From positions 620,001-684,000 of the forward strand of contig NC_087252.1 in the NCBI RefSeq assembly GCF_037042905.1: a DNA stretch of 64,000 nt. The letters run 5' to 3'. The position numbers and the translations under genes are program-made. This document shows, piece by piece, positions 1 through 60,459 of this stretch; the first letter of the stretch is position 1, and each line of letters begins with the position of its first letter. The notes under the pieces were generated by a model, which was given only the letters and a program-made list of their open reading frames with translations, did not search any database and had not been told where the DNA came from. Source of the stretch: Lytechinus pictus (lineage: Eukaryota).

Positions 1-1429
1 AATATATTTTTTGCATATTCAATGAGCAAGTTGACGGTGTGATATCCCCGCCTGTTCTTTTATATTTTATTACATAAGATAATGTGTATTTAATTGTATT
101 CCTCTAAGAATAAAAAACAGAATAGACAACTAATTTAATACATTAGTTATTTAGTGCTGCCACTTATATTTCATCATAAGGGAGACATATGACACACATA
201 TGTATGCAAATGATATCAAACGATTATGATTTTATGTAATACCATAAGAAAAAGGAAAATGGGACATAAAATTGCTAAACATTAAATTTCAATAATTTTG
301 TTTTTGGTATCAGAATTTAATGAAACTTTCACCATTTTGCTCAATTAATCTTACTGTATTTAGTACAGATATCTTTATTATTAGTCCCGAGCACCCATCT
401 GAGAATATAAATGAATTTTAATAATTCATAAGTATTTGTAAATTTAAAGTTCTTAAACAATATAAATAACTGAAGGATATTCTTTTAAATTTCATCAACT
501 ATGGGTAATAAATAACAATTCAATTCCAATTCAATTCTTTATTTCATTTCCATTCAAAGCTAGTTTACAGTAATATTCATAAATCAAGCAAGCATTGTAC
601 TATGAGATAAAATTCAGATGACGCGAAAGATTCCATATACATATATTCATTGTATTTCAGTTATTGACCGCGTGCCTCTAAACCCATCCCAATTGACCTG
701 TGATATTTTTCATCGTAGAAAAGTGTTCCCCCATTCGTCTTTTAAGATCACCGCACACCCTGGTCCAAGATCCGAGTTTGGAACATTTGGAACAAATCGC
801 ATTTTGTGCATTTTCTGAAAATGTGAATGAAAAGTACATTTTATTTAAGTTTAATTAGCTGTAATAACCCCAATATAACAATTTTGAAAGATTGAAAGCC
901 TTTACATTTAGAAAAGGCAAAATCGTTTCAAATTGTAGCCAATCGTACGATTGCTATGAGGTCATTACGCTTTTATTTCAACAAGGATTATATAATAGTT
1001 ACATAATATTTGAACATAAGTATTTGTATGATGACTTAGAACATTACACAGTAAAATATCCCATCTTTCAATATCAGTATCAATTTTTACTACGTTATAT
1101 TTTACATTCGTGTCGCAAACCAATCTTAAGGTGTCCCTTATTTCGTGATACAAGCCCATTAACGTGAGGATAATTACTTGTTATCTTGATTAATTAGTTA
1201 AACTACGTTTAACTAAGCCGAGTGACGTAATGAAATGCAATGTTTAAGTAACCAAAGTGATGAGCAAAGTCATGACATGAATGAGCTGTTCACATAGAAA
1301 TAATTACACGCCAACTAACTTCTTCTTCTTATTCTTCCTCCACTTTTTTCGGAGATCAGCACCAAGATGCAGTAAGGCGTAATCCATTCGTCCATCCAGT
1401 ACATTGCATTTGAAGGTTAATTTACATAA

Positions 1430-4894: not shown

Positions 4895-4896
4895 TA

Positions 4897-9323: not shown

Positions 9324-12300
9324 CTATGTCTCCTTTATGATGACTTGGCATACCAAGGTATATGTACTACGGCATGGAACATCATGCATATTACCCTCTA
9401 TCATTTCCAAAGCCACGCAATCTCTGGTATTATCAGGTTGGCCAAAGCCCCAGTCTATAAAGGTATAAGAAAGGACAAAGATATAAGGAAATTCGCAGTT
9501 AGCTCATGCCCATGATCAACTTCGCTCGAATCGCTTTCACATTTTTCATTAGGATGAGCACATAGTTAACACTTTCAAATAAAGATGTTTTCCGGATATA
9601 GCACGTTGTAAATTTGTTATAGATTTGGTTCACCATACGTTTGTGGAGAAGCTGCTCACATATGACATCACAAATCAAACATATGACAATTAATCGCTAG
9701 AGGGTATTCATTTGCCTTGCAATCTACTATGGTCAACAAGGAAATTCGTGATCACTCTCGCAAAAAGTGTTCACTAGCTTACAAGTTCGCGAGCTTTCGA
9801 GTGCCGCTGCAACTCTTTATCAAGTGACGAAAATTATATACGCACGAACGCGGGAACAATAGGTGGGCACTGATCCGTTGTGTGATTGGTCGGGCGTTTC
9901 ACCAATCAGTGCGTCGATGTACGGTGCGGCCGGTGATCCGTATATGCAAATAAGCCTGAGGTATATACAAATACGCCGCGAGTCGGCAATATACACTTTT
10001 TGCGAGAGTGATCACGAATTTCCTTGTTGACCATAGTAGATTGCGAGACAAATGAATACCCTCTAGCGATTATTTCAGTCCGCAATAATGAACCTATTTA
10101 GCATATGTACATTCTTATAACTTTTTAAAACTGTAATTGACTTTCCTCAAACCTTCACCAATATTTTGGATTATTTATTTATTTTATTACAATAATTCTT
10201 TTTTGTCAGGGCGAACTTTCCTATTTTAAGCTTAGTTTATTTTAACATATCAATATCATTTATTTAGCTACAAAATTCACTTTTCGGAAAACGACAAAGG
10301 GAATGTTTTCATGGAGCCAGAAAACAATTTGCATGTATATTGGCATGGTCAATCAATGCGTATGAAGCCTGAAGTTGGATTTAGGGTTTAGCCTTAAAAC
10401 AGCCAAGAGGGGTTGAATCCTCATTATTATCACCTTCATCATTAAAAATATGTACAAATATTTCCATTCTGCTTTATAAATGAATTGATTAATTTAATGA
10501 ATTTTATTTTTGGGTTGTCATTTCTTTTAAGCGATCTGCTTTTAATGACATTACTTCTCCTGCAAACTGTAAATGTTAAAATCATTTGGTTGTAGATCAT
10601 ATTTGTTTAGAATAACTTGTTATTTAGTCCATTTTTTCTTTTATGATTCATGCCAAAAACAATAATCAATAAATCATGTTATGTAATGAAAAAATATATC
10701 ATATACGAATGTTATAAATGCAGAAAAAAACGATAAACCAATCAAATCCACAAGTCGAAATTCATTGGACGCACCAATCAATCTGACCTTTTACTTTGAA
10801 ATCTTTTGATACCAAAATGCGACTCCTGGGTACGCGATTGCAAAATTACGCAACATTGTGTAAGTGAATTTCAGACCCAAAATTGCCCCAAAACATGTTT
10901 TGAGTACAAAGTCAATCCAAAGTGAGTTTTCTAATCTTATTCATGAAGATGTAAATATTTTCAATTTCACCAGCTGAAATAAATTGGTTCAAGATTAATC
11001 ATGCTTCAAACAGGTTATGCAATAAATTTGTCGCAAAAAAAAAAAAAAAAAAAAAAGATCGACAAACAATTGTAATTTCGTTCGTAATATTCCTTATTAG
11101 GTGTATTTTACTTTGTCTTGCGAAAAATTTGTCGATTCATTCGTCAAGCTGGGATTAGGTCTTGAATAAATCTTCAAATAAAAGAATTAATTGCTGTAAT
11201 TGCTTGCCTCAATGCTTTAGGGCAAGAGGGAGCGGAGTCTTTTTTTCGAAACACAAGGAACATCATGAATTGACACATAGATTAAAGTCATCCTAATGGC
11301 CCTGGGAAGCAGAGGTGCTGGGGTGAGTCTTCCACATTTTCTTTTCCGCGGGGGTTGCTTGTATGGTACTACACCAACGCAGCACTTCCTGGAAATAAGG
11401 CCGACATTCTTAATTGTAAAGACTTGACCCAAATTTTCCTTATTTGTGCATTTGAGAACATCCCCCCTTTCGGCTCAGTCAATTCCTCATTGTAAATGAA
11501 AATAATACCTTATACCATTTGACTAAGTTGTAGTTAATAACAATCAATTATGAGGGGGAAAATGAGAAAATTTGTCTTGTTGACCCCCAGCCTCGTGGAC
11601 CCTCTAGGTCTCGTGCACCCTGAGCCTCATGGGATAACCCCAGGGTTCTTAGAGGGCAGCATTCCCTCTACGCTCGTTGGATTTTTACTTACTTCGGTAG
11701 TAAGTTTGTGTGTCGTGTCTGTCAGTGTAGCAGAGGTATGAACCGCTTATTCTTTTACAGTTCAACCAGATCCATCCATCGGTAATGAGAGTCTTTAAAA
11801 TGACGTACTCTTCATCACTCTCTACGGAGACTAGGGTAGGGTCCTCCATGATCCCGTTACCCATGGCAACAGCATCCAAACTATTACAGTGGTCTTTAGC
11901 TGCTTGGTAAGACGCGGATGAGGATGTTACCAGGAAACATTTGGTGCCCGCATACTCCCAATCGGCTGGACACACTTGATGAAAGGATAAAACGTGGATC
12001 ACACGATTCATGTAACAGACTATAACAGACCGATTCAGTTTGTTTGCTGTTTTATCAAACAAATTCTATATGAAGGTTCAAGTTCAAATGCAGTATGTAT
12101 AATGACAGTTAACTTATGCACTGGTATAGCAAATTATATGGCTTATCATAACATACTGAAAGTGCTCTTGTTCTACTTTGGGAGCCTCCACCCCACCCCC
12201 ATTGCCATTAGCATATTAAGGAACCAGGCAAATAATACATTGAATCTAATGAGGCTAATCAAAATATGTATTCATGAGGTCATATCTGAGGCCCGATTCC

Positions 12301-13993
12301 CACCAAAGTTGGGGAGTGGGGGTTTTTCATGAAGCTCTACCAAAATATGATATAAAAAACGCTGAAATGCGAAAAAAAGTTTTTTTTGTGACGTCATCAC
12401 TTCGGTACTCTATTACATGATATTCGTTCCATGAATATTCATGAGTCGTAGTCTGACTAAATAAACCCAATCGGGTCATGACCATGGGAAGCAAGGTGCA
12501 AAAGTGTAACTTTTGTAGTGAAATCCTTTATTGTTTGCTTTTCAGATTTCTCGATACCAATGTGACATCGACTTTGTAAAAAAACCTTTTTTTGCTTTTC
12601 AAATTTACATGTTTAACAATTGTAGTTCCACATTGTAGTTCTGAGAGAAATAAAACTTTGTTTCACAGGACAATGGGTAGCAAATTAGAATATATCTTAT
12701 TTCATATAATAAGATACAAAAGAAACAGTGAGTGATATCATCAGTCCCCTCATTTGCATATCGACCGGGATGTGCAAATTATTGTTTTGTGAAATTAAGC
12801 GAAACTTTAAAATATCATAACTTTTTTATTTTACATCCGATTTTGATAAAATTTTCAGTGTAAGGCTTGTTGCATTGTTTTCTTTTTATTCAAATCAACT
12901 TTTTGTTTGGGTGGACTTGTCTTTTAAGGAACAATAGATGAACAGTAGAAGAAGAACTGAAGAAGTAAAGATTGTGAAACTTAATAATCAATTGAAAGGC
13001 ATACGATTGCATGAACACTACACATACTGAAAATAATTATCAAACTGAATGACGGTAAAATGTAACTGAAAATAACAACATACCACTCCTTGATGTATTT
13101 CAAACATGATTAAACTCATGACCAGTAGTTAATTTTCTTAAAGTGGTAAATAACCCGGGTACTAGAGACGACAATATTTACTACTTTAAGAAGATCTCGA
13201 CGATACAGTTTTGAAGTTAATTCGATACAAGGCTTATATACGCTTACTTGGAATCTGACAATTCTTTCCAAGATACGCCTCAAGACAGGAGCAGCTATAG
13301 CCATCCAATTCTTCCATGCACGATCCACCATTCTGACACGGATTGGAGTAACATGCTGTAAAAGGGATATTCAAAAAATGGTGACTCCACTGTACAATTT
13401 AGCTGCCAGGTGGGCGTTTCATAAAGTTGTTTGTAAGTTAAGAGCGGCTTTACGAACGACTGGTGAAACTTTCTTACCCGCTATTAATAACTCCGAATTA
13501 ACATTTAATGTTGAATATCATTCACCACAAGGAATGATCACTAGTCGTTCTTAAACTCACTCTTAACTTACGGAGAGCTTCATAAAACGGCCCCAGATCT
13601 ATTTCAAATACATTCTAGGTTTATTTTGTCATCATAACTGCATACCAGTGGTAATTTTGAAATATTCTTTCTGAATCCATTTGGAAAAAAATAAAGATAT
13701 ACTACTACTACTACTACTACTACTACTGCTGCTGCTGCTACTACTACTGCTACTGCTACCATTGGCGGCGGAGCAGAGGATTATATTTTGGGTTTGGGGG
13801 GGACGCAACAATAGGCGTCCCCCCAAACACAAAAGATAATCCTCTGCTCCGCCGCCAATGACTGCTACTACTACTACTACTATATTATAATTATTATTGT
13901 TGTTATTAAAGGGTTAAAGTAAATAGCTTACTAATTCTAACACTAATACTTCTTCTACTCCTCCTCCTTCTACTATTACTTCTATTGCTTCTT

Positions 13994-14121: not shown

Positions 14122-15858
14122 TTCTACTACTTTTACTGCAAACTGGAATCTTTGCTAAACATTATGTTTGATGAAAATAGTACCTTGAAATGCACAATTC
14201 ATGTTAGTTTTGTTCCGTGCTCTCTGTAGCACTCTGATGTGCTGAGGTGTTGACCGGCACTTTCCATCACCAAGCACTGATAATACATCATGATAAGTTA
14301 AGAAAAAAAAACGAAACATAGAATTAAACATAGTTGCAATAGAAGAAGAGGATGAAGGTAGAAGAAGAAGAAGAAGAAGAAATTGAAGAAAAAAAGCAGA
14401 AGAAGAAAAGAAGAAAAAGAAGAAGAAAAAAAAGAAGAAGAAGAAGAAAAAGAAGAAGGCGAAGAGGGGAGACTAAAAAAGAGCAAGAGCAAAAACAAAC
14501 AAAGAAGAAAAGAAGAGGGAGGAGGAAAAGGAGAAAAATACAATTAATTGAATCATAAGACATTTTGGAAACAGGGCGATGGCACTATTTTGAAATTAAG
14601 TTTAGAATTTCTCGTCATATTCATCTTCAGTTAACTCAGTTTTTAAAATTCGTTGTTTGATGACTCGCACATCAAATAAAAACATCTGATCTATTCAAGA
14701 AGGTAAACACATCAACACAATCATTGAGACCCCATGTATACACCCCCTAAAAAACAACAACAACATAATTTAACTACCAGTAGCAACTAAGATATCAAAA
14801 AGAGCCGAAAGAGTTGATGATAAATACCAGTTGTTGTCACGATTTCAAAATGAGTTCGTACAGAATCCAATGAAATGACCATTAAGTGTGTGTATGTATT
14901 ATGTATTATGTGCCTAAGGACTCTGGAAAAAATGGTATTTGCTTAGAAATTGACAAAATAGGCATGGCATTCCATTAAAATATCAGGGGGGGGGGTCACA
15001 AAGATTAAGTATGACGTATATAGCGTTGCAAGAAATCTTAAATCTTTGTAAAACACCCCTGGTTTTTTTCTAGTCAATAATAATACGCTGTCCCACGTGT
15101 ATAGTGATCCGATAGGGTTAAAGTAAATAGCTTACCGTCGAATGGTTGATTGAGAATAGAGAATACCACGATTAGGAGCTTTGAAGAGTTCTTAAATAAA
15201 TCGAAATAATATAATGATGAATTATTATGATAAAATAATATACAGCACATGCATGATTACAATGAATGATAATAAACTCTATAAATAGTAATTAATACTA
15301 CGCTACTACTACTACTACTACTACAACAACTACTACTACTACTAATACTACTATTACTACTACTTCTACTACTACTACTACTAATACTTCTGCTACTACT
15401 GCTGCTACTGCTGCTACTACTACTACTACTACTACTACTGCTACTACTACTAAACTACTACTACTGCTATCATTACTAATACAACTTTACAATCCTATGA
15501 CTATTATCGGAATTATGAAGGCGCTACAATGATGCTTCTTGAGGCATTTTTATTTCAGGCCACTATCTTACACAATTACTGGCTTATTGAATGGGAGGGG
15601 GGGGGGGGTTGGGGCCATTGACCCCCAAATTTATACCACTAAGAAAAATGAGAAAAAGATGGAAAAGGAAAAAAAGACAAAATGTGACAGTGTCATGTCA
15701 AGATCTGCAATCTAAGGTTCAAGTTTTTTTCTAAAGATAAAATAAAAATATGTCACTCGCTTCGCTCGCTCCCAGATTTTAAAAAATCTTACCCCATAGC
15801 ACCATGTCTGCCAACTCAAATTTGTTTTACTTCATCACGCTTATGCATTACTTACCAT
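9324..15858 (-). CDS. Secreted EGF + C-type lectin protein, copy A (223 aa); coding exons 15858-15856, 15190-15136, 14276-14184, 13355-13248, 11974-11693, 9454-9324
   Basis: All introns GT-AG with consistent phases (0,1,1,1,1). Protein MNSSKLLIVVFSILNQPFDVLG (signal-like), EGF CYSNPCQNGGSCMEELDGYSCSCLEAYLGKNC, CTLD CPADWEYAGTKCF...NWGFGQPDNTRDCVALEMIEGNMHDVPC...LVCQVIIKET*. Confidence 0.88.
9691..10072. mobile_element. MITE-like element with about 80-bp terminal inverted repeats (unit A intron 5)
   Basis: TAATCGCTAGAGGGTATTCATTTG...CAAATGAATACCCTCTAGCGATTA; absent from B and C. Confidence 0.75.
13410..13593. mobile_element. Degenerate palindromic MITE; truncated copies near 38455 and 59775
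   Basis: GGGCGTTTCATAAAG...CTTCATAAAACGGCCC, internal inverted symmetry, CAG flanks. Confidence 0.55.
13760..13860. mobile_element. 101-bp hairpin MITE, hAT-like
   Basis: CATTGGCGGCGGAGCAGAGGATTAT...ATAATCCTCTGCTCCGCCGCCAATG flanked by the 8-bp direct repeat ACTGCTAC. Confidence 0.75.
13990..14130. repeat. (CTA)n microsatellite, intron 3 of copy A
   Basis: Direct reading. Confidence 0.95.
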
Positions 15859-20200: not shown

Positions 20201-20396
20201 ATAAATCCCAGAAACAACGGTTATTCCTGTCTACAGACAGTACAGTGTTAGATCTGATTATCGCTGCATTGCTTGCCAAGTAACTGGGCCTGGCTAAATT
20301 TAGAATTAGTCCTAGACATCTCTCTACTCCTGTTTTAGGTCCATATCTGTTTCTTTGAAGAGTTTTTTATTCAAACATTTTTGGGGACTCGTTTAG

Positions 20397-23587: not shown

Positions 23588-23602
23588 GCAAGCCCCAGAA
23601 GT

Positions 23603-29524: not shown

Positions 29525-32500
29525 CTATGTCTCCCTTATGATGACTTGGCATACCAATGTATATGTATTACTGCATCGATTATCATGCATCGTACCGTCT
29601 GTCATTCTTAAAACCACGCAATCTCTGGTATTGTCAGGTTGGCCAAAGCCCCAGTCTATAAAGGTATAATAAAAGACAAAGATATTTATCAGCAAATTAT
29701 GTCATGCTGATGATCAACTTCGCTCGAATCACTTTCACATTTTTCATTAGGATGAGCACATAGTTAACGCTTTAAAGTGAGGATGTTTTCCAGATATAGT
29801 ACGTTGTAAACTTGTTCAATAGATTTGGTTCACTTTTGATTTTTTTTACCATACAATATGTGGAGAAGCTGCTCACATATGATGTCACTAATTGAAAAAT
29901 AAAAATTATTTTAACTTTTTAAAACTGTAATTGACTTTCCTCAGAACTTCACCAATATCTTTGATTATTTATTTGTATTACAATATTTTTTTTGTCAGGG
30001 TGAACTTTCCTATTTAAAGCTTAGTTTATCTTAACATATCATTATCATTTAATTAGCTCTAAAATTAACTTTTCGGAACTTAACAAAGGAGATGTTTCCT
30101 TTGAGCCAGAAAATAATTAACAATATAAAAAAAAATATGGTCAATGAATGCGTATGAAGCCTGAAGTTGGATTTAGGGTTTAACTCTAAAACGGCCAAGA
30201 GGCGGTTGAATCCTCATTATTATTATCATCATCCTCGTTAAAAGTATGAACCTATATTTCTATTCTGCTTTACAAAGGGTTAATTAATTTAATGAATTTT
30301 AATCCAGAGTTGTCATTTTTTCAAGCAATCTGCTTCTAATGGCAATATTCTCCTGCGAACAGTAAATGTTAAAATTATTTGGTTGTAGATCATATTTGTT
30401 TAGAATTACTTTATTCAATCCTTTTTTTTCGTCATGATTCAAGCCAAAAAAACCCGTAATATATCATGTTATGTAATGAAAGATATATGTATACGAATAT
30501 TATGAATGCAGAAGAAAGCAATAAACCAAATCAAATCAAATCCCGAAACTCGAAATTCATTGGACGCGCCACCCAGTCTGACCCCTTATACCAAAATGCG
30601 ACTCCAGGGTACGCGGTTGCGAAATTACGCAACATTATGTGAGTAACTGTCAGATCCAAAATTGCCCCAAACGTATTTTTTTTAATAAAAAGTCAATTGG
30701 GCAGTTCTTGCATCCAGATTTGCACACTATGCATATCTACAATTTTGCATTATAGGGTTTTGGGCCATACATTGCATCCATTGTTGAATTACATATAGGC
30801 AGGTCTAAATCCATAGGGCACTAGCCATATAGGAGTAACATTAAAATTGGTCATTACATAACACATACGTTCATGCGTTTCTTTGTGATAAAGTGAGTGT
30901 ACAGATGTTAAAGAAAAGCCAGGAAGGTAATTTAAAAAGAAACCTTCATGTGCCATATAATAAAGGTCACACGGGCCTAACTACAACTGGCAGGCCAATT
31001 CGAGCCAACCCATGGCTCAATTTTTAAATTTGATATTGCTGATTGACAAAAATGAATGAATATGATTGACAATTTAACACTGATTCTACGGAGGGTACCC
31101 ACTGAACTTCCTTTTTCAAAATTGGAAAGATATATCACCACTTTGGAACTATTTTTTTTACTAGCGGAATTATTAGGGCCATTTTACTCTCTCAAGTGAT
31201 AAATTTGTGTGTGTGTGTGTGTGTGTGTATTTGAGTATGTATTTGATCCTGTCAGGTGTAGTCTTCATAAATGCCGATTTATTTTTAAAATGAGCCGGTC
31301 GAGGTACCCTTTTCAGGTCAGATATGGAAAGTCAGACAGATATTCTGTCCACTGGTAGTAAACATTCAACCCTCGAATTTCCTCGTTATTTGTTATGATT
31401 TTTTTTTAAGTGCCACTTTAACACACGAGTCTATGGGAAATAAATTAGGCCTGTGATACCCCCGGGTTCTTAGAAACGAACATAGAGGGCAGCATCACGT
31501 TGCTTCCTTCTACGCTCGTTGGATTTTTACTTACTTCGGTAGTAAGTTTGTGTGTCTTGTTTGTCGGTGTAGCAGAGGTATGATCCGCTTATTCTTATAC
31601 AGTTCAACCAGACCCATCCATTGGTAACGTGAGTCTTTAAGATGACGTACTCTTCATCACTCTCAACGGAGACTAGGGAAGGGTCCTCCATCATCCCGTT
31701 ACCCATGGCAACAGCATCCAAACTATTACAGTGGTCTTTAGCTGCTTGGTAAGACGCGGATGAGGATGTTACCAGGAAACATTTGGTGCCCGCATACTCC
31801 CAATCGGCTGGACACACTTGATAAAAGGATAAAACGTGGATCACACAATTCATGTAACAGACTATATCTATTTATTTATTTTATTTACCTATTCCACTTT
31901 TAAAACAAATAACATAATATACATAACAAATGATATCAAGTTACCAGAAAATAATGGAGTAGAAAAAGAATAAAAATAAAAATAGTAAGATAAAATGAAA
32001 ATAAAATACGACAAAAAAAGACGGATGGGGGTTCAATGGATAACTAATAGAGAGTATAAGGAAGAAAGAATAGAAAAACATAATTAGAATTATAATTTTT
32101 TGCAGTCATCAGTACGATCCAGCCTTGTACCTCTCTAAAAGGTACAACTTAAAAGGATTGTCTAGGCTGGAGATATTTATATTTTAATAAAATTAATAGA
32201 GTAAAATTTACAAAGCAAATGGTGAAAATTTGATCAAAATCGCGTAACAAATGACAAAGTTATTGAATTTTAAAGATTTGCATTATTCCGGTGAAACAGT
32301 TTTAGGCATGTCTTAATAAATATATTCATTAGGTGGGCTGATGTGTCATATCTCCACTTGTTCTTTTGTATTTTATTATATGAAATTAGGTTTATTTAAA
32401 ACAATTATACCAAGAACTAAAACAATTGGATTGAAAACTGATTGAGTGCATTAGTTTTTTATTGCCGCAACTTATTTCATCATAATGGAGACACATCATT

Positions 32501-35500
32501 TACACATGTATGAAAAAATGAAGCATTTATGATTTCATTTAATAACATAAGAAAAGGGAAAGTGGCGATGTGACATCATCAGCTCACTTAATGAATATTT
32601 ATGAGGATGTGCATACAACTGTTTTCACAAAATATTGATAACCTTTAAAATTTAATAACTTTGTTATTTTTTTTTCGATTTTGATGAAATTTTCAGCAGT
32701 TTGCTCTATGAATTTTACTCTATTTTTTTAGATATAAATATATAAATATTTTCAGAACGGACCATCCCTTTAAGCTTAGGTTTGAAAGAATTGAGAGCGG
32801 GGCTATCAACCAGTTCGTTATTTAGGATGTTCCATAATTTGGATCCTGTAGTAGTAAAAGTTCGGGTTCGGGTTTGTGTGAGGTAGTAATGGTTAGCTTG
32901 TCTAGTTGAATGGGAATGCAAAATGAAATTGCGTTGAAATAATGGCGCAAAAGCATATGGTAAATTATCATTCTTAAATTTGAACATAAATATACCAAGG
33001 TTGTACAAATATATATTTTCAAGATTTTGCAATTATAAAAAAAAAGTCATTTGTATGAGCACGAAATCCAGCGTTATTGGTTATTCTTATAACACGCTTT
33101 TGGAAATGCTAATTTTGTCCAAGAGGGTTTTGGAGCTATTACCCCCAGTTAGAATGCAGTAATTAAAGTAGAGCAAAATAAGAGCAGGATAAAGTACATG
33201 TATACGCAACACATGAAAGGGTACAAGCGTTTCAGTTTGTTTATCACACCAGTGTTACGAGATAATATTTTTTATAAGGAATCAATCTATACCCGCCATG
33301 TTAGCTTACTGTCGATATATATACCTAAAAATTTGGTAGAATCAACTTCGGAGATGTTTTTATTGGGATCAGGACAACTACCCCCCGGACAATTACCCCC
33401 CGGACAATTACCCCCCGGACAACTACCCCGGAAATTACCCCCGAGGACAATTATTCCCCGGACAATTACCCCCCCCCCGAGGACAATTACTCCCCGGACA
33501 ATTACCCCCTGAGGTCAATTACCCCCCCCCCGAGGACAATTACCCACCGGACAATTACCCCCCTGACAACTACCCCCCCGGACAATTACCCCCCGGACAA
33601 CTACCCCCGGACAATTACCCCCCGAGGACAATTACCCCCGGACAATTATCCCCTGGACAATTACCCACGAAGACAATTACCCCCGAGGACAATTACCCCC
33701 GGGAACAATTACCCCCCCCCCTGAGGACAATAACCCCCTAGACAAAGGGAGTGCACAGAGTCATACGTCGGCCGTACGTTTGACGTAAGAAGTACTCAAG
33801 GCATTCTCGAGTATCTTGGAATCAAACGAACGCCGTAAGAAAGCTGTAAAAGTGAGCTCCATCCATAGGCGGATCCAGGTGGGGCCCGAGGGGCCCGCCC
33901 CCCCCCCCCTATTGGCGGAGCAAAAAAATAAAAAAAAAGAAAGGGGAAAGAAAGAAAAAAAGAAAAAGGAGGGGAAAGAAAGATGGAAAAAGAAGAGGTA
34001 AAATAAAAGGAGGGAGACGAGTGAAACAAAAAGTCATGGGAAGACTTGGAAAATGATAAAAAAATATATTTCATGTCACTATGTTAAATAATTCGCTCGC
34101 GCTTCGCGCTCGCATAGCCTGTTCGATGAGATACATATCTTGCTAAATAGGCTAAATAGCCTGATATGAAGCTTAAAATATCAAGTTTTGAAGTCGATAT
34201 ACAAAGCATATTTCAGCTCGGACATTATTCATTAGTTTGTTTGATTTACAAACTGATTTTTTAAGTGCTCTATAAAATTTCCGTTTGTGGTCTAATTATT
34301 AATATTTTCAGCTCATGCTGCTCGGTCGCATTATTTGATTTGCATAGGCCTACTTCTTTATAAATTCTTACAAACCGTCCTTAAAATGCACCTTAAACGA
34401 ATTGTATACTATCATGATTGCCAATTTGTATAGAAAATACACTGTGTTTGATTATGTCATATTGTTTAAATTTAGTAATTTTGGTACTTAATTTCCTTCT
34501 TTAAAGGGGAATCCAGCCTTGGCCATAAAATGTTATGTTGGGAAGGAGAAAAATGAATTAAACAAAATGGTGAAAGTCTGAAAGAAATCGGACAAGCAAT
34601 AAGAAAGTTATAGCTGCTTTAAAATTGAGATCACTAATACTATGTAAATTTCAAATTGGCAACTGGGTAAGTAAACTATGACAAGGGGCAATGACAACTT
34701 TCCCATAGTCCATGTACTTTATTATCAGGGATTTGTGTTTTTTTCCATTCCCCTGGGGCAGTAATCTAAATATAACCCAGGTAGTACATTGTTTTATGTC
34801 CTCATGAAAGAAAAATATAATTTGAAATAAAACTTTTAGGAAAAATGACATTTTAGCCATAATATGTATTGGAGTACATGGAAGAGTAGTCATTGCTTTA
34901 CATCACTATGACATCCCATATGCGGCCAATTTGAAGTCTCCATGGGTATAGTGATTAACAATATTTACAATTTTTAAAATTCATAACTTTCTTGTTGTTT
35001 GTCCAATATTGTTCAAACTTTCACCTATCAACTTGTCTGATTTTTCTTTTCCTTATAAAAACAAATTTTTATTTGGGTTGGATTCCCCTTTAATGTTTAA
35101 TTGCTTTCACCCAAGAATAATACACACAAAATGTAATTTTACCATTTAGGTCCTAAATGGTAAAATCACAAATTATTCTTGTGTGTATTATCTTTGCAAA
35201 AAGTTTTTTAGCTTACTGTACTAAGTTATAAAGCCACATCTGAATCTGGAATGTGCACCAATTGTTTCAAAATTCTTAGCTTCTTGTTAGTTGAATTGTT
35301 TTAAAATAACAGGTTTATAGGTCCTACTTGACAGTGTTAGTGTTAATTGCGTTATCGACTTTCAATATTTCTAACTATGAAGGTGTCTTTTTTACGTTTT
35401 ATCTATTTGCCTGATTTCTTTCCTGAAATTAAACCCAAAATAAATATTTAAAAAAAATCAGATCAGTTGGAATCAGAGATATTCAGCATTTGTGATTATT

Positions 35501-38500
35501 ATGACTAATCGTGTTCAGTTGTTCTATGAAAACTTAGTATGAGGGCCAGTTTACACTTTTTCTGATGCATATATGCATAGCCAAACGGGAGGTTTCGGGT
35601 GCAAGCCCCCCCCCCCCCATTTTTCATGATGCAGAAGGCGCCGCTAAACAAAAAAAAAGGAAAAAGGCGAAAGTGAGAGAGCAGTAGAAAGAGCAATATA
35701 AAAGAGAAAGAAAAAGTTATTAACGTAAGATAAAGTAGAAAATATTATGAAAACCTGTGCCACCGACCAAAACTTACAATGGGTCCCGCTTAATTCTAAC
35801 ATTGATGCTGGAGAGAAGGGGGGATTTTCTGGGGGTAATTGTCCGGGGGGTAGTTGCCTGGGGGGTAGTTGTCCGGGGGGTAATTGTCCGGGGGGTAATT
35901 GTCCGGGGGGTAATTGTCTGGGGGGTAATTGTCCTCAGGGGGTAATTGTCCTGGGGGTAGTTGTCCGGGGGGTAATTGTCCTCGGGGGTGATTGTCCGGG
36001 GGTAGTTGTCCCGGGGGTAATTGTCCGTGGGGTAGTTGTCCTGATCCCCAGTATTAATGATATCTAAAAGGGTATTGGGGTTTTGATGGGAGCAAAAAAT
36101 ATTGGAGTCATCAGCAAAAATAATAAAAGACAATACAGAAGAAGTATTCTGTAAATCTTTGATTATAAAATAAAGAGGAGCGGGCCTAATAATGAACCTT
36201 GTGGGACTCCACATCTAATGGGTTGAGGGGTTGATTCAACACCATTAATATAAACATATTCTTTTTTATCATAAAGGTAGTCCCTGAACCACTCCCAGGC
36301 CTTTCCTCGAATTCCGTAGTGAGACAAATTGTATAGCAAATTAATATGGTTAATGGTGTCGAAGGCCTTGGAGAGGACCAGAAAAATACCTGCAGCATGT
36401 AACTTGCTGTCAATAGCTCTGGCAATTTTATTGCTACTTAATAAGAGGGCATGTGTTGTTGAATGTTGTCTGCGGAAACCAAATTGAGACCCAAATAGCA
36501 CATTGTTGTTATTTGAAAAAAATCAATGGGGCGAGAGTAAATAATTTTATCTAGTATCTTGGAAAAACTGGTTGAAAGAGATATAGGGCGATAATTTCCT
36601 ATGTCATGTTTATTGCCTTTCGTATAGATAGATATGACCCTGGAATTTTTTTTTTTTGGTTAAAGATAAATTAAATATATGTGTTAACGGACAGACAATT
36701 TTTAATAAGGCATTTGTTACACCATCATATGAGGCTTTTATTTTGCTTCATGTTACTTTTATTTGATTGAAAAATATTTATTTATGAAAAACACAAGATC
36801 AGTGAAAAAAAACAAGGTCCGAAAAAGGTTGAAAAGTTACATCAAAATTAAAAAATCATATCATTAGTGGGGAAAAATACGCTTGCCGCCATAATAATAA
36901 TAATAATAACTCTTATTTACCCAGGGTAGCCACTCTCAGCTGTAAGCTGTTCTTCCAGCGGGCCCTGCATAACATAATATGTTAGTATTACCCTTCTCCA
37001 TTCTCATACGTCGAGCGCCTGACAAGAAGGCAGAAGGTCCCATTTTTGTAAGTCTTTGGTATGACTCCTTGGTATGACACGACCTCCCGTTCATGAGGCG
37101 GGTGCTCTACCACTGAGCCACCATGTCCGGTTACAGAGCTCTGTAGTTATATTTATCTGATGTATGCATAGTATTCGAATCGCTCATGCACTGTAAATCA
37201 TATCGAATACAATTTTCAAAACATAAGCATCATTAAAGACCAAGTCTACCCCAGAAATATATAATCAATAAAGAAAAAAACAGACAACCATAATGCTTAA
37301 AATTTCATCAAAATCGGATGTAAAATAAGAAAGTTAGGACATTTCAAAGTTTCGCTTATTTTTCACAAAATAGTTATATGCACAATTTAGTCGCATGTAA
37401 ATGACAGAGTCGATGATGTCCCTCACTCACTATTTTCTTTTGTTTTTTTATTGTTTGCTTTATTCAATATTTCAATTTTGTCAGATTTTACAGAAAGGAC
37501 AAACTTAACTGAACCATAAAATGTTTAACAATGATACGTCCACATGTTTAGAGAGAAATAAAACTTTGTTTCACAGGACAATGAGTAGAAAATTAGAATA
37601 TTTCATATTTCACATAATAAAATACAAAGGAAACAGCGAGTGAGTGAAGGCATCAATCCCCTCATTTGCATACCGACAAGGATGTGCATATAACTTTTTT
37701 TTATTTTACACCCGTTTTTATAAAATTTTCAGTGTTTCGCTTGTTGGATTTTTCTCTTTTCATTCAAATCAACTTCTAATTGGGGTTGGACTTTTCCTTT
37801 ATTGCAATAGATTTAAAATAAGAACAATTATATTCATTATATGCTATATTTGGAGATTAAAACTAAGGTATAATATTCAGAGGAGAGTTATGATCATGAA
37901 TATGAATTTTCTGATGTCATCTCTAATTTTAGATAATATTCAGGCAGCGATTTTAATAGGACGACTATTCAACTTTAAGGAACAATAGATGAACAGTAAA
38001 AGAAGAACGGAAGAAGTGAAGATGATGAAACTTAATAATCAATTGAAAGGCATACAATTACATGAACACTAAACATACTGAAAATAATTATCGAACTGAA
38101 TGACGGTAAAATGTAACTGAAAATAACAACATACCACTCCTTGATGTATTTCAAACAAGATTAAACTCATGACCAGTAGTTAATTTTCTTAAATTTCTTC
38201 CGGGTACTAGAGAGGACAATATCTACTACTTTAAGAAGATCGACGACACAGTTTTGGAGTTAATTCGATACAAGGCTTATATACGCTTACTTGGAATCTG
38301 ACAATTCTTTCCAAGATATGCCTCAAGACAGGAGCAGCTATAGCCATCCAATTCTTCCGTGCACGATCCACCATTTTGACACGGATTTGAGTAACATTCT
38401 GTAAAAGGGAGAGGGAAATTACATGGTGACTCCGTTGTGCTCTTTAGCTGCCGGGTAGGTGTTTCATAAAGTTGTTTGTAAGTCAAGAGCGGCTTTTAAG

Positions 38501-38614
38501 AATGACTGGTGAAACTTTCTTACCCGCTAAATAACCCCGAATTAACATTTAATGTTGAATATCATTTACTACAAGGAAGAATCACTAGTCATTCTTAAAT
38601 TCACTCTTGACTAT

Positions 38615-38649
<35 letters not shown>

Positions 38650-38674
38650 TTACTACTACTACTACTACTACTAT

Positions 38675-38730
<56 letters not shown>

Positions 38731-38808
38731 TTACTACTACTACTACTACTACTACTACTATTACTACTACTACTATATTATTACTACTACTACTATTACT
38801 ACTACTAT

Positions 38809-38870
<62 letters not shown>

Positions 38871-38871
38871 T

Positions 38872-38921
<50 letters not shown>

Positions 38922-38922
38922 T

Positions 38923-38960
<38 letters not shown>

Positions 38961-39073
38961 TTACTACTACTACTATATTATTACTACTACTACTACTACT
39001 ACCACTACTACTACTACTACTACTATTACTACTACTACTACTACTACTATTACTACTACTACTACTATATTAT

Positions 39074-39109
<36 letters not shown>

Positions 39110-39378
39110 GTTAAACATAATGAATGATTAAATAGTACCTGGAAATGCACAATACATGTTAGTTTTGTCCCGTGCTTCCTGTGGCACTCTGACGTCATAT
39201 TCTGGATGATCACGTGTTAAATACTTGGCGACAAACTGAACAAATTCACCTGTTTGCTCGGAGATTTGATAGGGACATGCATTTAGAGGCATTGAGCTGC
39301 ATGTTCCATCACCAAGCACTGCTGTTACATCATAAAAGTTAAGAAAAAAGAAACATAGGAGGATGAAGGTGGAAAATA

Positions 39379-39410
<32 letters not shown>

Positions 39411-42400
39411 AGAAAGAAAGCGATGCAGTAGACGATGAAGAAGAAGAACAGATGAATGGAGCAAGAGCAAAAAAAAAGAAAGAGAAGAAGAGGGAGAAGA
39501 AAAAGGAGAAAAAATACAATTAATTGAATTATAAGACATCATGGAATCAGGGCAGTGGCACTATTCTGAAATCAAGTTTAAAATTTCTGGTCATATTCAT
39601 GTTCAGTTAAATCACTTTTTAAAATTCATTGTTTGATGACTCGCATATAAAATAATAACATCTGATTTAGACACGACGGTAAACACATCAACATAATCAT
39701 GTAGACCCCATGTATACACCCCCCCCCAAAAAAAAAAAAAATCAATACCAGTAGCAACTAAAGCCCCAGTCACATATAGACACGGATTCTCACGGATCAA
39801 CACGGCAATGCCGGCATAATCCGGGGAGGTCCGGGATCGTTTTGCCCCGGATTGAGCGTTGATGACTGTAAACACGGTATCTACACGGCATCTTCACACG
39901 GATCTACACGGACCATGCCGGCAGAGCACGTCGTCAACACGGACCAACACGTCAGCAACACGGACCTACACGTCAGCAACACGGACCAACACGTCAGCTA
40001 CACGGACCAACACGTCAGCAACACGGACCAACACGTCAGCTACAAGGACCAACACGGACCAACACGGACCAACACGTCAGCAACACGGACCTACACGTCA
40101 GCAACACGGACCAACACGTCAGCTACACGGACCAACACGTCAGCTTCACGGACCAACACGTCAGCTCAAGGACCAACACGGCAGCTATATTGACCAGCAC
40201 TTCAAATGAAAATCTACTCATAATAATGAGCTGATATTTATTTTATTTTTTATTTTTTCTCATCCTTGTCGCAACATTATATTATGTTGTTTTAAAAAAA
40301 AGATATCAAAACTCAAAACTTCCTTAATCAGTAAAAACGCTGTTTTTTTTAAATACAACACAGTTTACTGTTTTAACAGTAGTTGTTGAGTACTTTAAAT
40401 CTTGAATGATAAATTTAATTTTGATTTGATTTGATATCACTTTATTGAAATCAGAATAAAGGAAAGAAATTTACAAAGTCAATAGAAAACATAATACGAA
40501 TTAAAATAGGCCCAGGTCATGACGCATAACTGTCGATGCAGGGCAGTAGTATGAAACTTAATGTACAATTTCGATGTAACAGGTACATAACAAATACATA
40601 TAACATAAAAAAACAATGAAATGTGAAATAATAATAACAGACAAAGTTGGGGGTAAATATTAGAGAAAAAAAGAGAAAAAGAATTATTAATACATGCACT
40701 AAGTTTACAAATATTAGGTTGGGGCCAATCTCCACAGCGTAAGAAAGTATCCTGAATTATTCAATTATCCATTTAATCATAAATAAATTAAGCATGTTTG
40801 TGCCAACTGTTTAACAACAACTGAAAAGTTCATAAAGTAAATAGCGTTGTAAAGATTTGATGGGGAAAAAGAACACGGACTGCCAAGGATACTCCAGGCA
40901 GCCACACGGACCTACACGGCAGCTACACGGACCTACACGGCAGCCACACGGACCTACACGGCAGCTACATGGACCATCCCGGATGGCTTTGCCAACCCGG
41001 CAGTCCACGGATGACGCCGGATGTTTTTGACAGTCAAAAACTGCCGTGTTGGGGGTCTATATGTGACTGGGGCTTTAAGCCCCAGTCACATATAGACCCC
41101 GGACCACCCCGGACCATCCCGGATTTGATCCGGGGTGGTCCGGGGAGAGATCCGTATTGGCGCCTTGGGCATCCTTGGAGGTCCGGGGTGGTCCGTGTTG
41201 GTCCTTGAACGTCCGGGAGGCCAACACGGCAGTTTTTGACTGTCAAAAACATCCGGCGTCATCCGTGGACTGCCGGGTCGGCAAAGCCATCCGGGATGGT
41301 CCGTGTAGCTGCCGTGTAGGTCCGTGTGGCTGCCGTGTAGGTCCGTGTAGCTGCCGTGTAGGTCCGTGTGGCTGCCTGGAGTATCCTTGGCAGTCCGTGT
41401 TCTTTCTTCCCATGAAATCTTTACAACGCTATTTACTTTATGAACTTTTCAGGAGTTGATAAACAGTTGGCACAAACATGCTTAATTTATTCATGATTAA
41501 ATGGATGATTAAACGATTCAGGATATTTTCTTACGCTTTGGAGATTGGCCCCAACCTAATATTTGTAAACTTAGTGCATGTATGAATAATTCTTTTTCTC
41601 TTTTTTTTTTAAATATTTACCCCAACTTTGTCTGTTATTATTATTTCACATTTCATTTTTCTTAAAATAAATGTTATGTACCTGTAACATCAAAATTGTA
41701 CATTAAGTTTTATACTACTGCCCTGCATCGACAGTTATGCGTCATGACCTGGGCCTATCTTAATTTTTATTATGTTTTCTATTGACTTTGTAAATTTCTT
41801 TCCTTTATTGTGATTTCAATAAAGTGATATCAAATCAAATCGAAATTAAATTTGTCGTTCAAGATTTAAAGTACTTAACAACTACTGTTAAAACAGTAAA
41901 CTGTGTTGTATAAAAAACAGCGTTTTTACTGGTTAAGGAAGTTTTAAGTTTTGATATCTTTTTTAAAAACAATATAATGTTGCGACAAGGATGAGAAAAA
42001 AAATAAATATCAGCTCATTATTATGAGCAGATTTTCATTTGCCGTGCTGGTCAATATAGCTGCCGTGTTGGTCCTTGAGCTGACGTGTTGGTCCGTGTAG
42101 CTGACGTGTTGGTCCGTGTAGCTGACGTGGTGGTCCGTGTTGGTGACGTGTAGGTCCGTGTTGGTGACGTGTTGGTCCTTGTAGCTGACGTGTTGGTCCG
42201 TGTTGCTGACGTGTTGGTCCGTGTTGCTGACGTGTAGGTCCGTGTTGCTGACGTGTAGGTCCGTGTTGACGACGTGCTTTGCCGGCATGGTCCGTGTAGA
42301 TCCGTGTGAAGATGCCGTGTAGATGCCGTGTTTACAGTCATCAACGCTCAATCCGGGGCAAAACGATCCCGGATCTCCCCGGATCATGCCGGCATTGCCG

Positions 42401-43132
42401 TGTTGATCCGTGAGGATCCGTGTCTATATGTGACTGGGGCTTAAGATATCAAAGAGATCCGAAAGAGTTGATGATAAATACCAGTTGTTGTCACGATTTC
42501 AAAATGAGTTCTTACATAATCCAATGAAATGACCATTAAGTGTGTGTATGTATAAATAAGAATTATGTGCTTCTGGACTCTGGAAAAATTTATATTTACT
42601 TAGAAATTGACAAAAATAGGCATGGCATTCCATTAAAATATCAGGGGGTCACAAAGATTTAAGTACTGTATGACGTATATAGCGTTGCAAGAAATCTTAA
42701 ATCTTTGTAAAACAACTCTGGTTTTTTTTTTCTAGTCAATAATAATACACTGTCCCACGTGTATAGTGATCCGAAAGAGTTAAAGTAAATAGCTTACCGT
42801 CGAATGGTTGATTGAGAATAGAGAATACCACGATTAGGAGCTTTGAAGAGTTCTTCAACAAATCGAAAGAATATAATGATGAATTATCATGATATAATAA
42901 TATACAGCACATGCATGATAACAATGAATGATAATAAACTCTAATAAATAGTAATAAATACTACACTACTGCTACTACTAATAATACTACTATTACTACT
43001 ACTGCGACTACTACTACTTCTACTGATACCACTTATAATACTACTACTTCTTCTTCTACTACTACTACTACTGCTGCTACTACTACTACTACTACTACTA
43101 CTAATACTACTTTTACTACATTTACTACTATT

Positions 43133-43166
<34 letters not shown>

Positions 43167-43564
43167 GCTATCATTACTAATACAACTTTATAATCCTATG
43201 ACTATTATCGGAATTATGAAGGCGCTACAATGATGCTTCTTGGAGCATTTTTATCTCTGGCCACTATCTTATACAATCACTGGCATACTGAATGGGGGGG
43301 GGGGGGCCTTTGGGGCCATTGACCCCTCAAATTTACAAGACTAGAAAAATGAAAAAAAGATGGAAAAGTAAAAAAAAAAGTCAAAATGTTATAGTATCAT
43401 GTCAACATCTGCAATCTAAGGTTCAAGTTTTTTCTAAAGACAAAAGTAAAAATAACTCACTCGCTTCGCTCGCTCCCAGATTTTTAGAAATCTTGCCCAA
43501 TGACGTCATATCTGCCCCCTCATTTTTTTTTTTTACTTCATTACGCTTCTGCATTACTTACCAT
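29525..43564 (-). CDS. Secreted EGF + C-type lectin protein, copy B (252-253 aa); coding exons 43564-43562, 42852-42798, 39318(or 39321)-39139, 38398-38291, 31816-31535, 29655-29525
   Basis: Same splice sites as copy A with an open frame. Exon 3 is 87 nt longer. Last exon reads NWGFGQPDNTRDCVVLRMTDGTMHDNRCSNTYTLVCQVIIRET*. Confidence 0.88.
30964..31460. mobile_element. MITE-like element in intron 5 (B; also about 50783-51262 in C; related piece at 16441-16885)
   Basis: Imperfect TIR GGTCACACGGGCCTA...TAGGCCTGTGATACC. Confidence 0.5.
32153..32769. mobile_element. TTAA-flanked MITE (Kolobok-like); copy at 51953-52562
   Basis: TTAA|A(A/G)GGATTGTC...GACCATCCCT|TTAA. Confidence 0.65.
33365..36048. 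mobile_element. Foldback-like DNA element with GGACAATTACCCCC subterminal arrays (B)
   Basis: TIR GGGATCAGGACAACTACCC. 15-18-bp tandem arrays in inverted orientation at 33370-33745 and 35830-36045. Confidence 0.8.
34505..35089. mobile_element. TTAA-flanked MITE (Kolobok-like) nested in the foldback element; copy at 55888-56471
   Basis: TTAA|AGGGGAATCCA...TGGATTCCCCT|TTAA. Confidence 0.75.
36891..37130 (-). mobile_element. tRNA-derived SINE, B-specific
   Basis: Head GGTGGCTCAGTGGTAGAGCACCCGCCTCATGAACGGGAGGTCG (A box present, B box missing), then GTCATACCAAAGAC and a (TTA)n tail. Empty site in C at about 58438. Confidence 0.75.
37237..37798. mobile_element. Kolobok-like MITE; copy at about 58547-59110, partial at about 12540-12925
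   Basis: TTAAAGACCAAGTCTACCCC...GGGGTTGGACTTTTCCTTTA, degenerate TIR. Confidence 0.55.
38610..39109. repeat. (CTA/TTA)n microsatellite, about 500 bp
   Basis: Direct reading. Confidence 0.97.
39762..41074 (+). mobile_element. PIF/Harbinger-type MITE, arm 1 of an inverted dimer
   Basis: TIR AGCCCCAGTCACATATAGAC at both ends; internal 21-bp minisatellite ACACGGACCAACACGTCAGCA. Confidence 0.85.
41078..42441 (-). mobile_element. PIF/Harbinger-type MITE, arm 2 (inverted)
   Basis: Reverse complement of arm 1, with SNPs and an extra about 120 bp at 41101-41220. Outer TSD TAA; empty site AGCAACTAAGATATC in A and C. Confidence 0.85.
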
Positions 43565-58300: not shown

Positions 58301-59930
58301 CTTTTATTTGATTGAAAAATATTTATTTATGAAAAACACAAGACCAGTGAAAAAAAAACAAGGTCCGAAAAAGGTTGAAAAGTTACATCAAAATTAAAAA
58401 ATCATATCATTAGTGGGGGAAAATACGCTTGCCGCCATGAATTACAGAGCTCTGTAGTTATATTTATCTGATGTATGCATAGTATTCGAATCGCTCATGC
58501 ACTGTAAATCATATCGAATACAATTTTCAAAACAGAAGCATCATTAAAGACCAAGTCTACCCCAGAAATATATAATCAATAAAGAAAAAAACAGACAACC
58601 ATAATGCTTAAAATTTCATCAAAATCGGATGTAAAATAAGAAAGTTAGGACATTTCAAAGTTTCGCTTATTTTTCACAAAATAGTTATATGCACAATTTA
58701 GTCGCATGTAAATGATAGAGTCGATGATGTCCCTCACTCACTATTTTTTTTTTTGTTTTTTATTGTTTGCTTTATTCATTATTTCAATTTTGTCAGATTT
58801 TACAGAAAGGACAAACTTAACTGAACCATAAAATGTTTAACAATGATACGTCCACATGTTTAGAGAGAAATAAAACTTTGTTTCACAGGACAATGAGTAG
58901 AAAATTAGAATATTTCATATTTCACATAATAAAATACAAAGGAAACAGCGAGTGAGTGAAGGCATCAATCCCCTCATTTGCATACCGACAAGGATGTGCA
59001 TATAACTTTTTTTTTTTTTTACACCCGTTTTTATAAAATTTTCAGTGTTTCGCTTGTTGGATTTTTCTCTTTTCATTCAAATCAACTTCTAATTGGGGTT
59101 GGACTTTTCCTTTATTGCAATAGATTTAAAATAAGAACAATTATATTCATTATAACGATATGCTATATTTGGAGATTAAAACTAAGGTATAATATTCAGA
59201 TGAGAGTTATGATCATGAATATGAATTTTCTGATGTCATCTCTAATTTTAGATACTATTCAGGCAGCGATTTTAATAGGACGACTATTCAACTTTAAGGA
59301 ACAATAGATGAACAGTAAAAGAAGAACGGAAGAAGTGAAGATGATGAAACTTAATAATCAATTGAAAGGCATACAATTACATGAACACTAAACATACTGA
59401 AAATAATTATCGAACTGAATGACGGTAAAATGTAACTGAAAATAACAACATACCACTCCTTGATGTATTTCAAACAAGATTAAACTCATGACCAGTATAG
59501 TTAATTTTCTTAAATTTCTTCCGGGTACTAGAGAGGACAATATCTACTACTTTAAGAAGATCGACGACACAGTTTTGAGGTTAATTCGATACAAGGCTTA
59601 TATACGCTTACTTGAAATCTGACAATTCTTTCCAAGATATGCCTCAAGACAGGAGCAGCTATAGCCATCCAATTCTTCCGTGCACGATCCACCATTTTGA
59701 CACGGATTTGAGTAACATTCTGTAAAAGGGAGAGGGAAATTACATGGTGACTCCGTTGTACTCTTTAGCTGCCGGGTAGGTGTTTCATAAAGTTGTTTGT
59801 AAGTCAAGAGCGGCTTTTAAGAATGACTGGTGAAACTTTCTTACCCGCTAAATAAACCCGAATTAACATTTAATGTTGAATATCATTTACTACAAGGAAG
59901 AATCACTAGTCATTCTTAAATTCACTCTTG

Positions 59931-59979
<49 letters not shown>

Positions 59980-60001
59980 TTACTACTACTACTACTACTA
60001 T

Positions 60002-60051
<50 letters not shown>

Positions 60052-60052
60052 T

Positions 60053-60087
<35 letters not shown>

Positions 60088-60157
60088 TTACTACTACTAT
60101 ATATTACTACTACTACTACTAGTACTACTACTACTATTACTACTACTACTATATTAT

Positions 60158-60208
<51 letters not shown>

Positions 60209-60270
60209 TACTACTACTACTATTACTACTACTACTACTACTACTACTATTACTACTACTACTATATTAT

Positions 60271-60302
<32 letters not shown>

Positions 60303-60326
60303 TTACTACTACTACTACTATATTAT

Positions 60327-60373
<47 letters not shown>

Positions 60374-60421
60374 TTACTACTACTACTACTACTACTATTA
60401 CTACTACTACTATATTATTAT

Positions 60422-60459
<38 letters not shown>

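Follow-up and report, generated by a model that had tools for sequence, protein, structure and literature searches.

Duplicated genes of recognition proteins are well known to undergo fast changes at their binding surfaces, and lecticans (brevican, neurocan, versican, and aggrecan) are proteins composed of Ig and link modules, a glycosaminoglycan region, and an EGF-lectin-sushi C-terminus. The ligands of Ca2+ site 2 in the C-type lectin MBP-A are Glu185, Asn187, Glu193, Asn205, and Asp206, according to the excerpted text of PMC8235521, and gene conversion is proposed for the urchin Sp185/333 cluster in the excerpt of PMC5103432. The locus described here lies in a stretch of 64,000 nucleotides of the sea urchin Lytechinus pictus (assembly GCF_037042905.1, contig NC_087252.1, positions 620,001 to 684,000 of the forward strand), hereafter the window, in whose coordinates all positions are given. 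A self-comparison of the window revealed three head-to-tail copies (A, B, and C) of a six-exon gene on the minus strand, whose product, judging from the translated exons, is probably a secreted protein made of a signal peptide, a module of ~60 residues, an EGF domain, and a C-type lectin-like domain. Copy A departs from the others at a short segment of the last exon, and an episode of positive selection on this copy after tandem duplication is the reading favoured here, with a probability of about 0.5.

The initial annotation of this DNA had counted ten nonsynonymous and three synonymous codon differences between A and B in the last exon, had placed nine of the former in the beta3-beta4 region around the WND-equivalent, and had listed a site with three states (E/R/I in A/B/C). 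The recount over 43 codons is identical (16 nucleotide differences), the three-state codon reads GAA/AGA/ATA, and nine of the ten nonsynonymous changes fall in codons 14-29, a position with which the strands of an AlphaFold model agree. The exon and its main features are the following:

9324..9454, minus strand: exon 6 of copy A, the last coding exon, with an AG acceptor, an open frame, and a TAG stop.
9366..9413, minus strand: changed segment, codons 14-29, with 9 nonsynonymous and 1 synonymous codon and 13 of 48 nucleotides different between A and B.
9381..9389, minus strand: MHD, the WND-equivalent, with Asn205 replaced by His and Asp kept; the same in all three copies and frequent among family members.
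9423..9425, minus strand: in all three copies, Arg at the position of MBP-A Glu193, two residues ahead of the beta3 Cys (alignment to MBP-C).
9432..9440, minus strand: QPD, the motif of galactose-type canonical lectins, shared unchanged by the three copies.

The clustering of the changes in exon 6 exceeds chance, with a scan-corrected P of 0.0024 for a 16-codon window and of 0.0079 for an 18-codon window (9 of 10 changes among 43 codons). The exon remains under purifying selection outside the segment, where beyond an 18-codon peptide (codons 12-29) the ratio omega is 0.13 and the single change in 58 nonsynonymous sites has P=0.002 at the flank rate; within the peptide omega is 2.1 (Fisher p=0.24), and eight of the nine codons whose residue is unchanged are the same in A and B. 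Third codon positions of the segment are at background (2/13), first and second positions of its variable codons differ in 10 of 18 cases (Fisher p=0.027, post hoc), and three of the nine changed codons are adjacent double changes. When the conserved sites of the exon are defined from eight relatives without A, none of the 16 family-conserved sites is changed, all nine consecutive variable sites of the segment are changed, and only 1 of the 18 other variable sites is; a similar run appears under four other site definitions, one of which counts a changed site as conserved.

The direction of these changes was obtained from the closest database records, which are L. pictus XP_054761011 (P0001, A-like) and XP_054761012 (P0006, B/C-like), followed by two L. 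variegatus genes (P0004; P0002/P0007-P0010). With P0004 as outgroup all eight polarisable segment changes are A-derived (p=0.008), and the other 121 lectin-domain sites hold 2 A-derived and 6 B-derived changes; with P0010 the segment gives 6 of 6 A-derived (p=0.03) and the remaining sites 7 for A to 2 for B (p=0.18). Between B and P0004 a single one of the 16 segment sites differs, against 24 of the 121 others, and the segment state is common to B, C, P0006, and the two L. variegatus genes, with A alone departing; the third state of the E/R/I codon (Ile in C) can be reached from B by one base change. Exon 3 behaves in the same manner, all eight polarisable changes being A-derived. Given these outgroups, the divergence at the protein level is demonstrably one-sided, and the pattern, as far as the sampled paralogues tell, is that of one departing copy and not of mutually diverse paralogues. 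A sequencing or assembly error is ruled out by P0001, which shares seven of the nine segment changes together with the 87-nt deletion of A.

The excess of changes was evaluated by simulations built on the observed non-coding difference pattern. When conserved sites were kept fixed and all others evolved neutrally at the rate of the local flanks, at least 7 changes in 13 codons occurred in 0.8% of 30,000 runs, and with conserved sites protected 9 changes in 16 codons occurred in fewer than 0.005% of runs; with all sites free the latter figure rises to 7%, and to 0.08-0.5% when only the share of A (50-65%) in the divergence is allowed. Codon models with fixed sites tied to the flank rate gave omega values of 2.2-11.6, with one-sided p from 0.048 to below 0.0001 over 24 variants, all post hoc. 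When variable sites were taken from four distant paralogues only, with no assumption on the branch, omega was 4.0-4.5 and p 0.0015-0.0037, or ~0.02-0.045 after a 12-fold correction, which is a rough estimate of the number of comparable segments. Allowing 16% of double mutations weakens the fixed-site signal and does not remove it.

The other exons and copies, modelled from AG/GT splice sites and open frames, are arranged as follows:

15856..15858, minus strand: end of copy A exon 1 with the start codon, ATG then a GT donor; the N-terminus is the same in L. variegatus P0008/P0010.
15136..15190, minus strand: copy A exon 2, probable signal peptide, with a hydrophobic 9-mer (mean Kyte-Doolittle 3.4) and no difference among the three copies.
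14184..14276, minus strand: copy A exon 3, N-terminal module with an 87-nt in-frame deletion, without a Pfam family.
13248..13355, minus strand: copy A exon 4, one EGF-like domain (Pfam EGF, E 1e-7).
11693..11974, minus strand: copy A exon 5, which codes for the first two thirds of the lectin-like domain and contains most of a 130-nt run identical to B.
29525..43564, minus strand: copy B, 252 aa, exons 43564-43562, 42852-42798, 39318-39139, 38398-38291, 31816-31535, and 29655-29525.
49379..62300, minus strand: copy C, 252 aa, exons 62300-62298, 61614-61560, 60787-60608, 59719-59612, 51617-51336, and 49509-49379.
1..1073, strand not assigned: match to the upstream region of A and B, 5-7% divergent.

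The modelled proteins are 223 aa long in A and 252 aa in both B and C. The exon joins are confirmed by the L. pictus and L. variegatus relatives; exon 6, which encodes the long loop, beta3, beta4, and beta5 of the C-type lectin-like domain and then the stop, matches Lectin_C weakly when taken alone (E 0.088), and its join is supported by P0001/P0006. The assignment of exon 2 to a signal peptide follows from its hydrophobicity and is probable. Splice sites and reading frames of A are intact and omega is 0.13 outside the segment, on which grounds a pseudogene was rejected. The match at 1..1073 is probably the 5' flank of a fourth copy, whose gene would lie left of the window. Copy B differs from P0006 at 3 of 137 lectin-domain residues. 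B and C are separated by 6 nonsynonymous and 0 synonymous differences in 252 codons (~172 synonymous sites; p=0.21, not significant), and their non-coding divergence (mean 3.0%, 0.9-4.6% by block) fits true copies and equally two alleles joined by the assembly. An exon 5 query against cluster representatives retrieved 38 proteins at E up to 0.001; of the ten that were looked up, five have sea urchin names and five carry no organism. Of 14 sequencing runs with matches to the window, none contains more than 9% of its words, and no RNA run is on record among them. Four of these runs over 8950-13450, swamped by repeats, gave no exon-6 variants or exon-exon joints among the rows listed, and a contig from a run presumed to be RNA stops at the edge of exon 5, which is too weak a hint to be used. 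The open-access literature searched yielded no paper on this gene family or locus. For the N-terminal module of exon 3 nothing was found above the Pfam cut-off and the ESM Atlas gave no usable match. In the relatives, this three-cysteine module of ~60 residues (B exon 3, 39139-39318) recurs in several family members, among them the Lytechinus paralogues P0003, P0018, P0026, P0049, and P0050 and the unnamed P0012 and P0025.

A versus B, the gene shows 31 amino-acid differences in 222 aligned codons, nine of which are in the segment; the concentration of changes at the lectin surface described by the initial annotation thus stands within exon 6 and does not extend to the gene as a whole, exons 3 and 5 being changed as well. 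Exon 5 has 9 nonsynonymous and 4 synonymous codons, and exon 3 has 10 nonsynonymous and 0 synonymous-only codons in 30 (NG86 omega 1.5, p=0.31), the codon spanning the 87-nt deletion being excluded; its proportion of nonsynonymous differences (pN) is 0.168 vs 0.153 in nearby non-coding DNA. The counts of 2 nonsynonymous and 3 synonymous changes in the EGF exon (36 codons) and of none in the signal exon (18 codons), given earlier, were confirmed. Their use as a contrast to the last exon has to be abandoned: non-coding divergence between A and B is 13.4% and 15.7% in two blocks around the last exon and 3.2%, 8.0%, and 5.6% in the blocks with exons 5, 4, and 2 (heterogeneity chi2 p=3e-23, with the 130-nt identical run), and the comparison is confounded because local divergence differs by block. 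The EGF and signal exons, lying in less diverged blocks, were therefore rejected as a fair control. The ratio of 10:3 is uninformative by itself, since random placement of 16 substitutions in exon 6 gives on average 11.1 nonsynonymous and 3.0 synonymous codons, and dN/dS over 101.8 nonsynonymous and 27.2 synonymous sites is 0.134/0.141, or 0.95 by NG86; what had been set against a less diverged exon was a neutral ratio. Recent homogenization of the low-divergence blocks by conversion or unequal crossing-over is likely. Two general lessons follow, namely that a raw codon count such as 10:3 can be the neutral prediction itself and that mosaic homogenization among tandem copies can make exons appear conserved.

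A series of results weighs against positive selection on A. The site models, run in our own implementation on three sequences (A, B, and C) and hence with low power, give a gene-wide omega of 1.02 under M0, and the comparison of M1a with M2a gives p=0.21 for the gene, 0.25 for the lectin domain, 0.17 for exon 6, and 0.33 with double mutations, while 20 fits of the same pair calibrated on the flanks range from 0.23 to 0.78; a dN/dS significantly above 1, proposed earlier as a check on each exon, was thus not found in the standard site model, exon 6 having an omega of 0.95 by NG86 and of 1.22 by maximum likelihood. The E/R/I codon is the only one with an M2a posterior above 0.8 (0.96), in a model that is itself not preferred. 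The fixed-site partitions were picked after the data had been seen, no test without hindsight is significant, and the least tuned partition (14 codons between cysteines, p 0.026-0.048) fails the 12-fold correction. Moreover, among 31 local non-coding windows of 43 sites, four have at least 11 differences, and adjacent double changes are a known source of false positives, as reported in bioRxiv 10.1101/165969. As to direction, a tree of 12 lectin domains, excluding the truncated P0005, does not settle the branching order of A, B/C, and the L. variegatus pair, and Glu16 (in P0049 and P0050) and Val25 (in P0050) may not be derived because more distant paralogues share them with A. Finally, exon 3 shows the same one-sided burst as the segment, A is also ahead outside the segment when compared with P0010 (7 to 2, p=0.18), and 7 of 137 sites separate the two A-type records, vs 3 of 137 for B and P0006 and 4 for B and C; together with the gene-wide omega, these observations fit a weakened constraint on A.

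A local loss of constraint, in which A lost the ancestral binding, perhaps with the N-terminal module, so that contact residues drift and fold residues are kept, is accordingly the alternative that deserves most attention, and although unlikely it retains some credit. It would account for the gene-wide omega near 1 and for standard tests that never reject omega=1, for an exon 3 that changes at about the non-coding rate and carries an in-frame deletion, and for the more numerous differences between the two A-type records, which include a free Cys in P0001. However, drift at the local rate of 15% alters about a quarter of free codons (mean 11.5/43) rather than all nine, just one of the 18 variable sites outside the segment is changed, and relaxation restricted to the A branch halves the expectation, which, if a clock is assumed, is surpassed by exon 3 (P 0.005-0.026) as well as by the segment (P 0.0008-0.005). 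A mutational clump in the mosaic background, namely an old unconverted block hit by few multinucleotide events, is improbable: the flanks are 13-16% diverged and contain 48-nt windows of 15-16 differences, 26% of the differences are followed by a second one (baseline 15%), and three adjacent double changes are present, but the real non-coding pattern rarely yields the cluster in simulations once conserved sites are protected, the excess lies at first and second positions (10/18) and not at third ones (2/13), 16% of double mutations lower the signal without removing it, and P0001 already lacks two of the nine changes.

An equally small chance is given to ongoing diversifying selection across all paralogues, the form in which selection on ligand specificity had been proposed by the initial annotation; of that proposal the excess of amino-acid changes at the hairpin holds for one lineage, since only A departs. 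The 6:0 count between B and C, the position in the segment of four of the six recent exon-6 variants among A/P0001 and B/C/P0006, the variation of distant paralogues at the same place, and the posterior of 0.96 at the E/R/I codon would speak for it, but the 6:0 count does not reach significance (p=0.21), M2a is not preferred, and B, P0004, and P0010 hardly differ in the segment, although elsewhere they are ~20% different. The least probable explanation is gene conversion of A, with an unsampled and more distant paralogue as the donor of the segment. In its favour, the A-B pair is mosaic, a fourth copy is probably situated just beyond the edge of the window, Glu16 and Val25 of A recur in L. pictus P0050, and conversion has a proposed precedent in the Sp185/333 cluster (excerpt of PMC5103432); against a distant donor stand the identity in A and B of eight of nine codons for unchanged residues, the third positions at background (2/13), the identity of only 49% of P0050 over the exon, and a query with the A-type exon that, in a weak search, matched only P0001 (1 candidate).

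The structural setting of the changes is that of a lectin-like fold. Lectin_C matches all four full proteins (P0001, P0006, P0010, and P0004) at 27-32.9 bits vs a cut-off of 22.6, and AlphaFold models of P0001 and P0006, built on 28-row alignments (mean confidence score pLDDT 83.7 and 83.5, with the N-terminal 40-50 residues unreliable), have a pLDDT above 85 across the lectin domain and display the double-loop fold, two helices, and the conserved disulfide cysteines; every match listed by Foldseek is a C-type lectin-fold protein. In P0001 beta3 corresponds to residues 192-196 and beta4 to 201-205, so that the changed cluster sits on the beta3-beta4 hairpin and, by alignment to MBP-C, adjoins the WND-equivalent, two changed sites following directly the Asp206 equivalent. 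If the register of the hairpin is regular, codons 14, 16, 21, and 25 would share a face with the His of MHD, codons 18 and 19 would be located at the turn, further from the pocket, and codons 26, 28, and 29 would follow beta4. In the alignment to MBP-C, a weak match (E 0.014) in which the motif and the cysteines serve as anchors, the five ligand positions of A, B, and C show Gln, Asp, and Asp kept, with Arg for Glu193 and His for Asn205; the Glu193-equivalent is Lys in P0004 and Glu in the more distant P0003, P0015, P0049, and P0050. Judged by these motifs, the copies agree with the canonical Ca2+-dependent carbohydrate-recognition class in QPD and depart from it in the Glu193 and WND features. 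Since all three copies carry replacements at two of the five canonical ligands, both the Ca2+ site and the glycan specificity on which the initial annotation had relied are doubtful, and an altered glycan specificity of A is unproven.

In the account that we favour, B and C have kept the ancestral form and A diverged one-sidedly after duplication, losing half of its N-terminal module in frame and replacing every variable residue of the beta3-beta4 hairpin, with cysteines, glycine, and MHD kept. The most likely cause is a short episode of positive selection, with omega of ~3-6 on ~9 codons, which may have retuned the exposed face beside the canonical binding pocket for a different ligand. The conserved appearance of exon 2 and of the first part of exon 5 is probably due to later homogenization through gene conversion or unequal crossing-over. 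With Arg and His in place of two Ca2+ ligands, canonical Ca2+-galactose binding is improbable, and a protein or an anionic molecule, with Arg occupying the Ca2+ position, could be as likely a ligand as a glycan. A bolder version, in which A is recently neofunctionalized, the loss of the N-terminal module and the retooling of the hairpin are one coupled adaptive change, and binding is Ca2+-free through Arg, is speculative and rather doubtful; if it were true, A and B would be a natural pair in which nine surface residues switch specificity. The A/B pair, differing at nine surface residues, is clean material for a ligand search in an unstudied family of an urchin that is a laboratory model animal.

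Mobile elements and repeats occupy other parts of the window. Units A and B are separated by a 9.6-kb insert (19180-28770) with short inverted repeats at both ends, which resembles, by its structure, a DNA transposon or miniature inverted-repeat transposable element with a nested long terminal repeat (LTR) element. The latter (20397-26481) is a young retrotransposon with 239-nt LTRs 99.6% identical, TG...CA ends, and a 5-nt target-site duplication (TTTAG), and its plus strand encodes, in three consecutive frames, gag, reverse transcriptase, RNase H, and integrase domains arranged in the gypsy-type order; a degenerate satellite with a period of ~155 nt is located at 27260-28540. On the minus strand at 1430-7283 there is a non-LTR retrotransposon with a PHD-finger open reading frame and a 498-aa frame without Pfam match, whose endonuclease and reverse transcriptase are split by an in-frame stop at ~2990. 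An exon-like stretch at ~7256-7294 on the plus strand (polypyrimidine tract, AG ... GT) overlaps the 5' end of the retrotransposon frame and could be, on these signals, a chance occurrence or a host-gene exon. The intron between exons 4 and 5 of copy C contains a 1.58-kb tandem duplication (52534-55694) of 98.9% identity, which is either very recent or an assembly artefact.

Among known proteins, the nearest are L. pictus XP_054761011/XP_054761012 and L. variegatus XP_041470501/XP_041483542-547, which belong to the same family and have the same exon joins, none being identical to A, B, or C. Relatives bear automatic database names such as brevican, versican, or neurocan core protein-like, which arise because of the similarity in the EGF and lectin domains; identity with lecticans was rejected, as the proteins are 223-252 aa long, only EGF and Lectin_C reach the Pfam cut-offs, and there is no link, Ig, or sushi domain. 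Ca2+-dependent galactose-type lectins (CEL-I, human macrophage galactose lectin, ASGPR) share with the urchin copies the fold, QPD, the conserved cysteines, and the Asp206 equivalent, and human macrophage galactose lectin and CEL-I are among the best Foldseek matches, with E ~1e-9 and TM-scores of 0.78-0.81 over the targets. In contrast to them, the urchin copies have ~20% identity, Arg for Glu193, MHD for WND, a family-specific insertion after helix 1, and an EGF domain and an unnamed N-terminal module in front. Urchin spicule matrix proteins are likewise secreted with one C-type lectin domain but carry Pro/Gly-rich acidic repeats, as described in the excerpted text of PMC5460417, whereas the A/B/C family has no repeat region and has an EGF domain. 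SpTransformer (formerly Sp185/333), from a cluster of urchin immune genes that diversify rapidly, is similar in its clustered near-identical copies, simple repeats, and proposed gene conversion (excerpt of PMC5103432); it is an unrelated protein, and here most copies are conserved and one departs. If positive selection acted on A, the locus would add one more duplicated recognition protein with a binding face altered by selection, in line with a common pattern.

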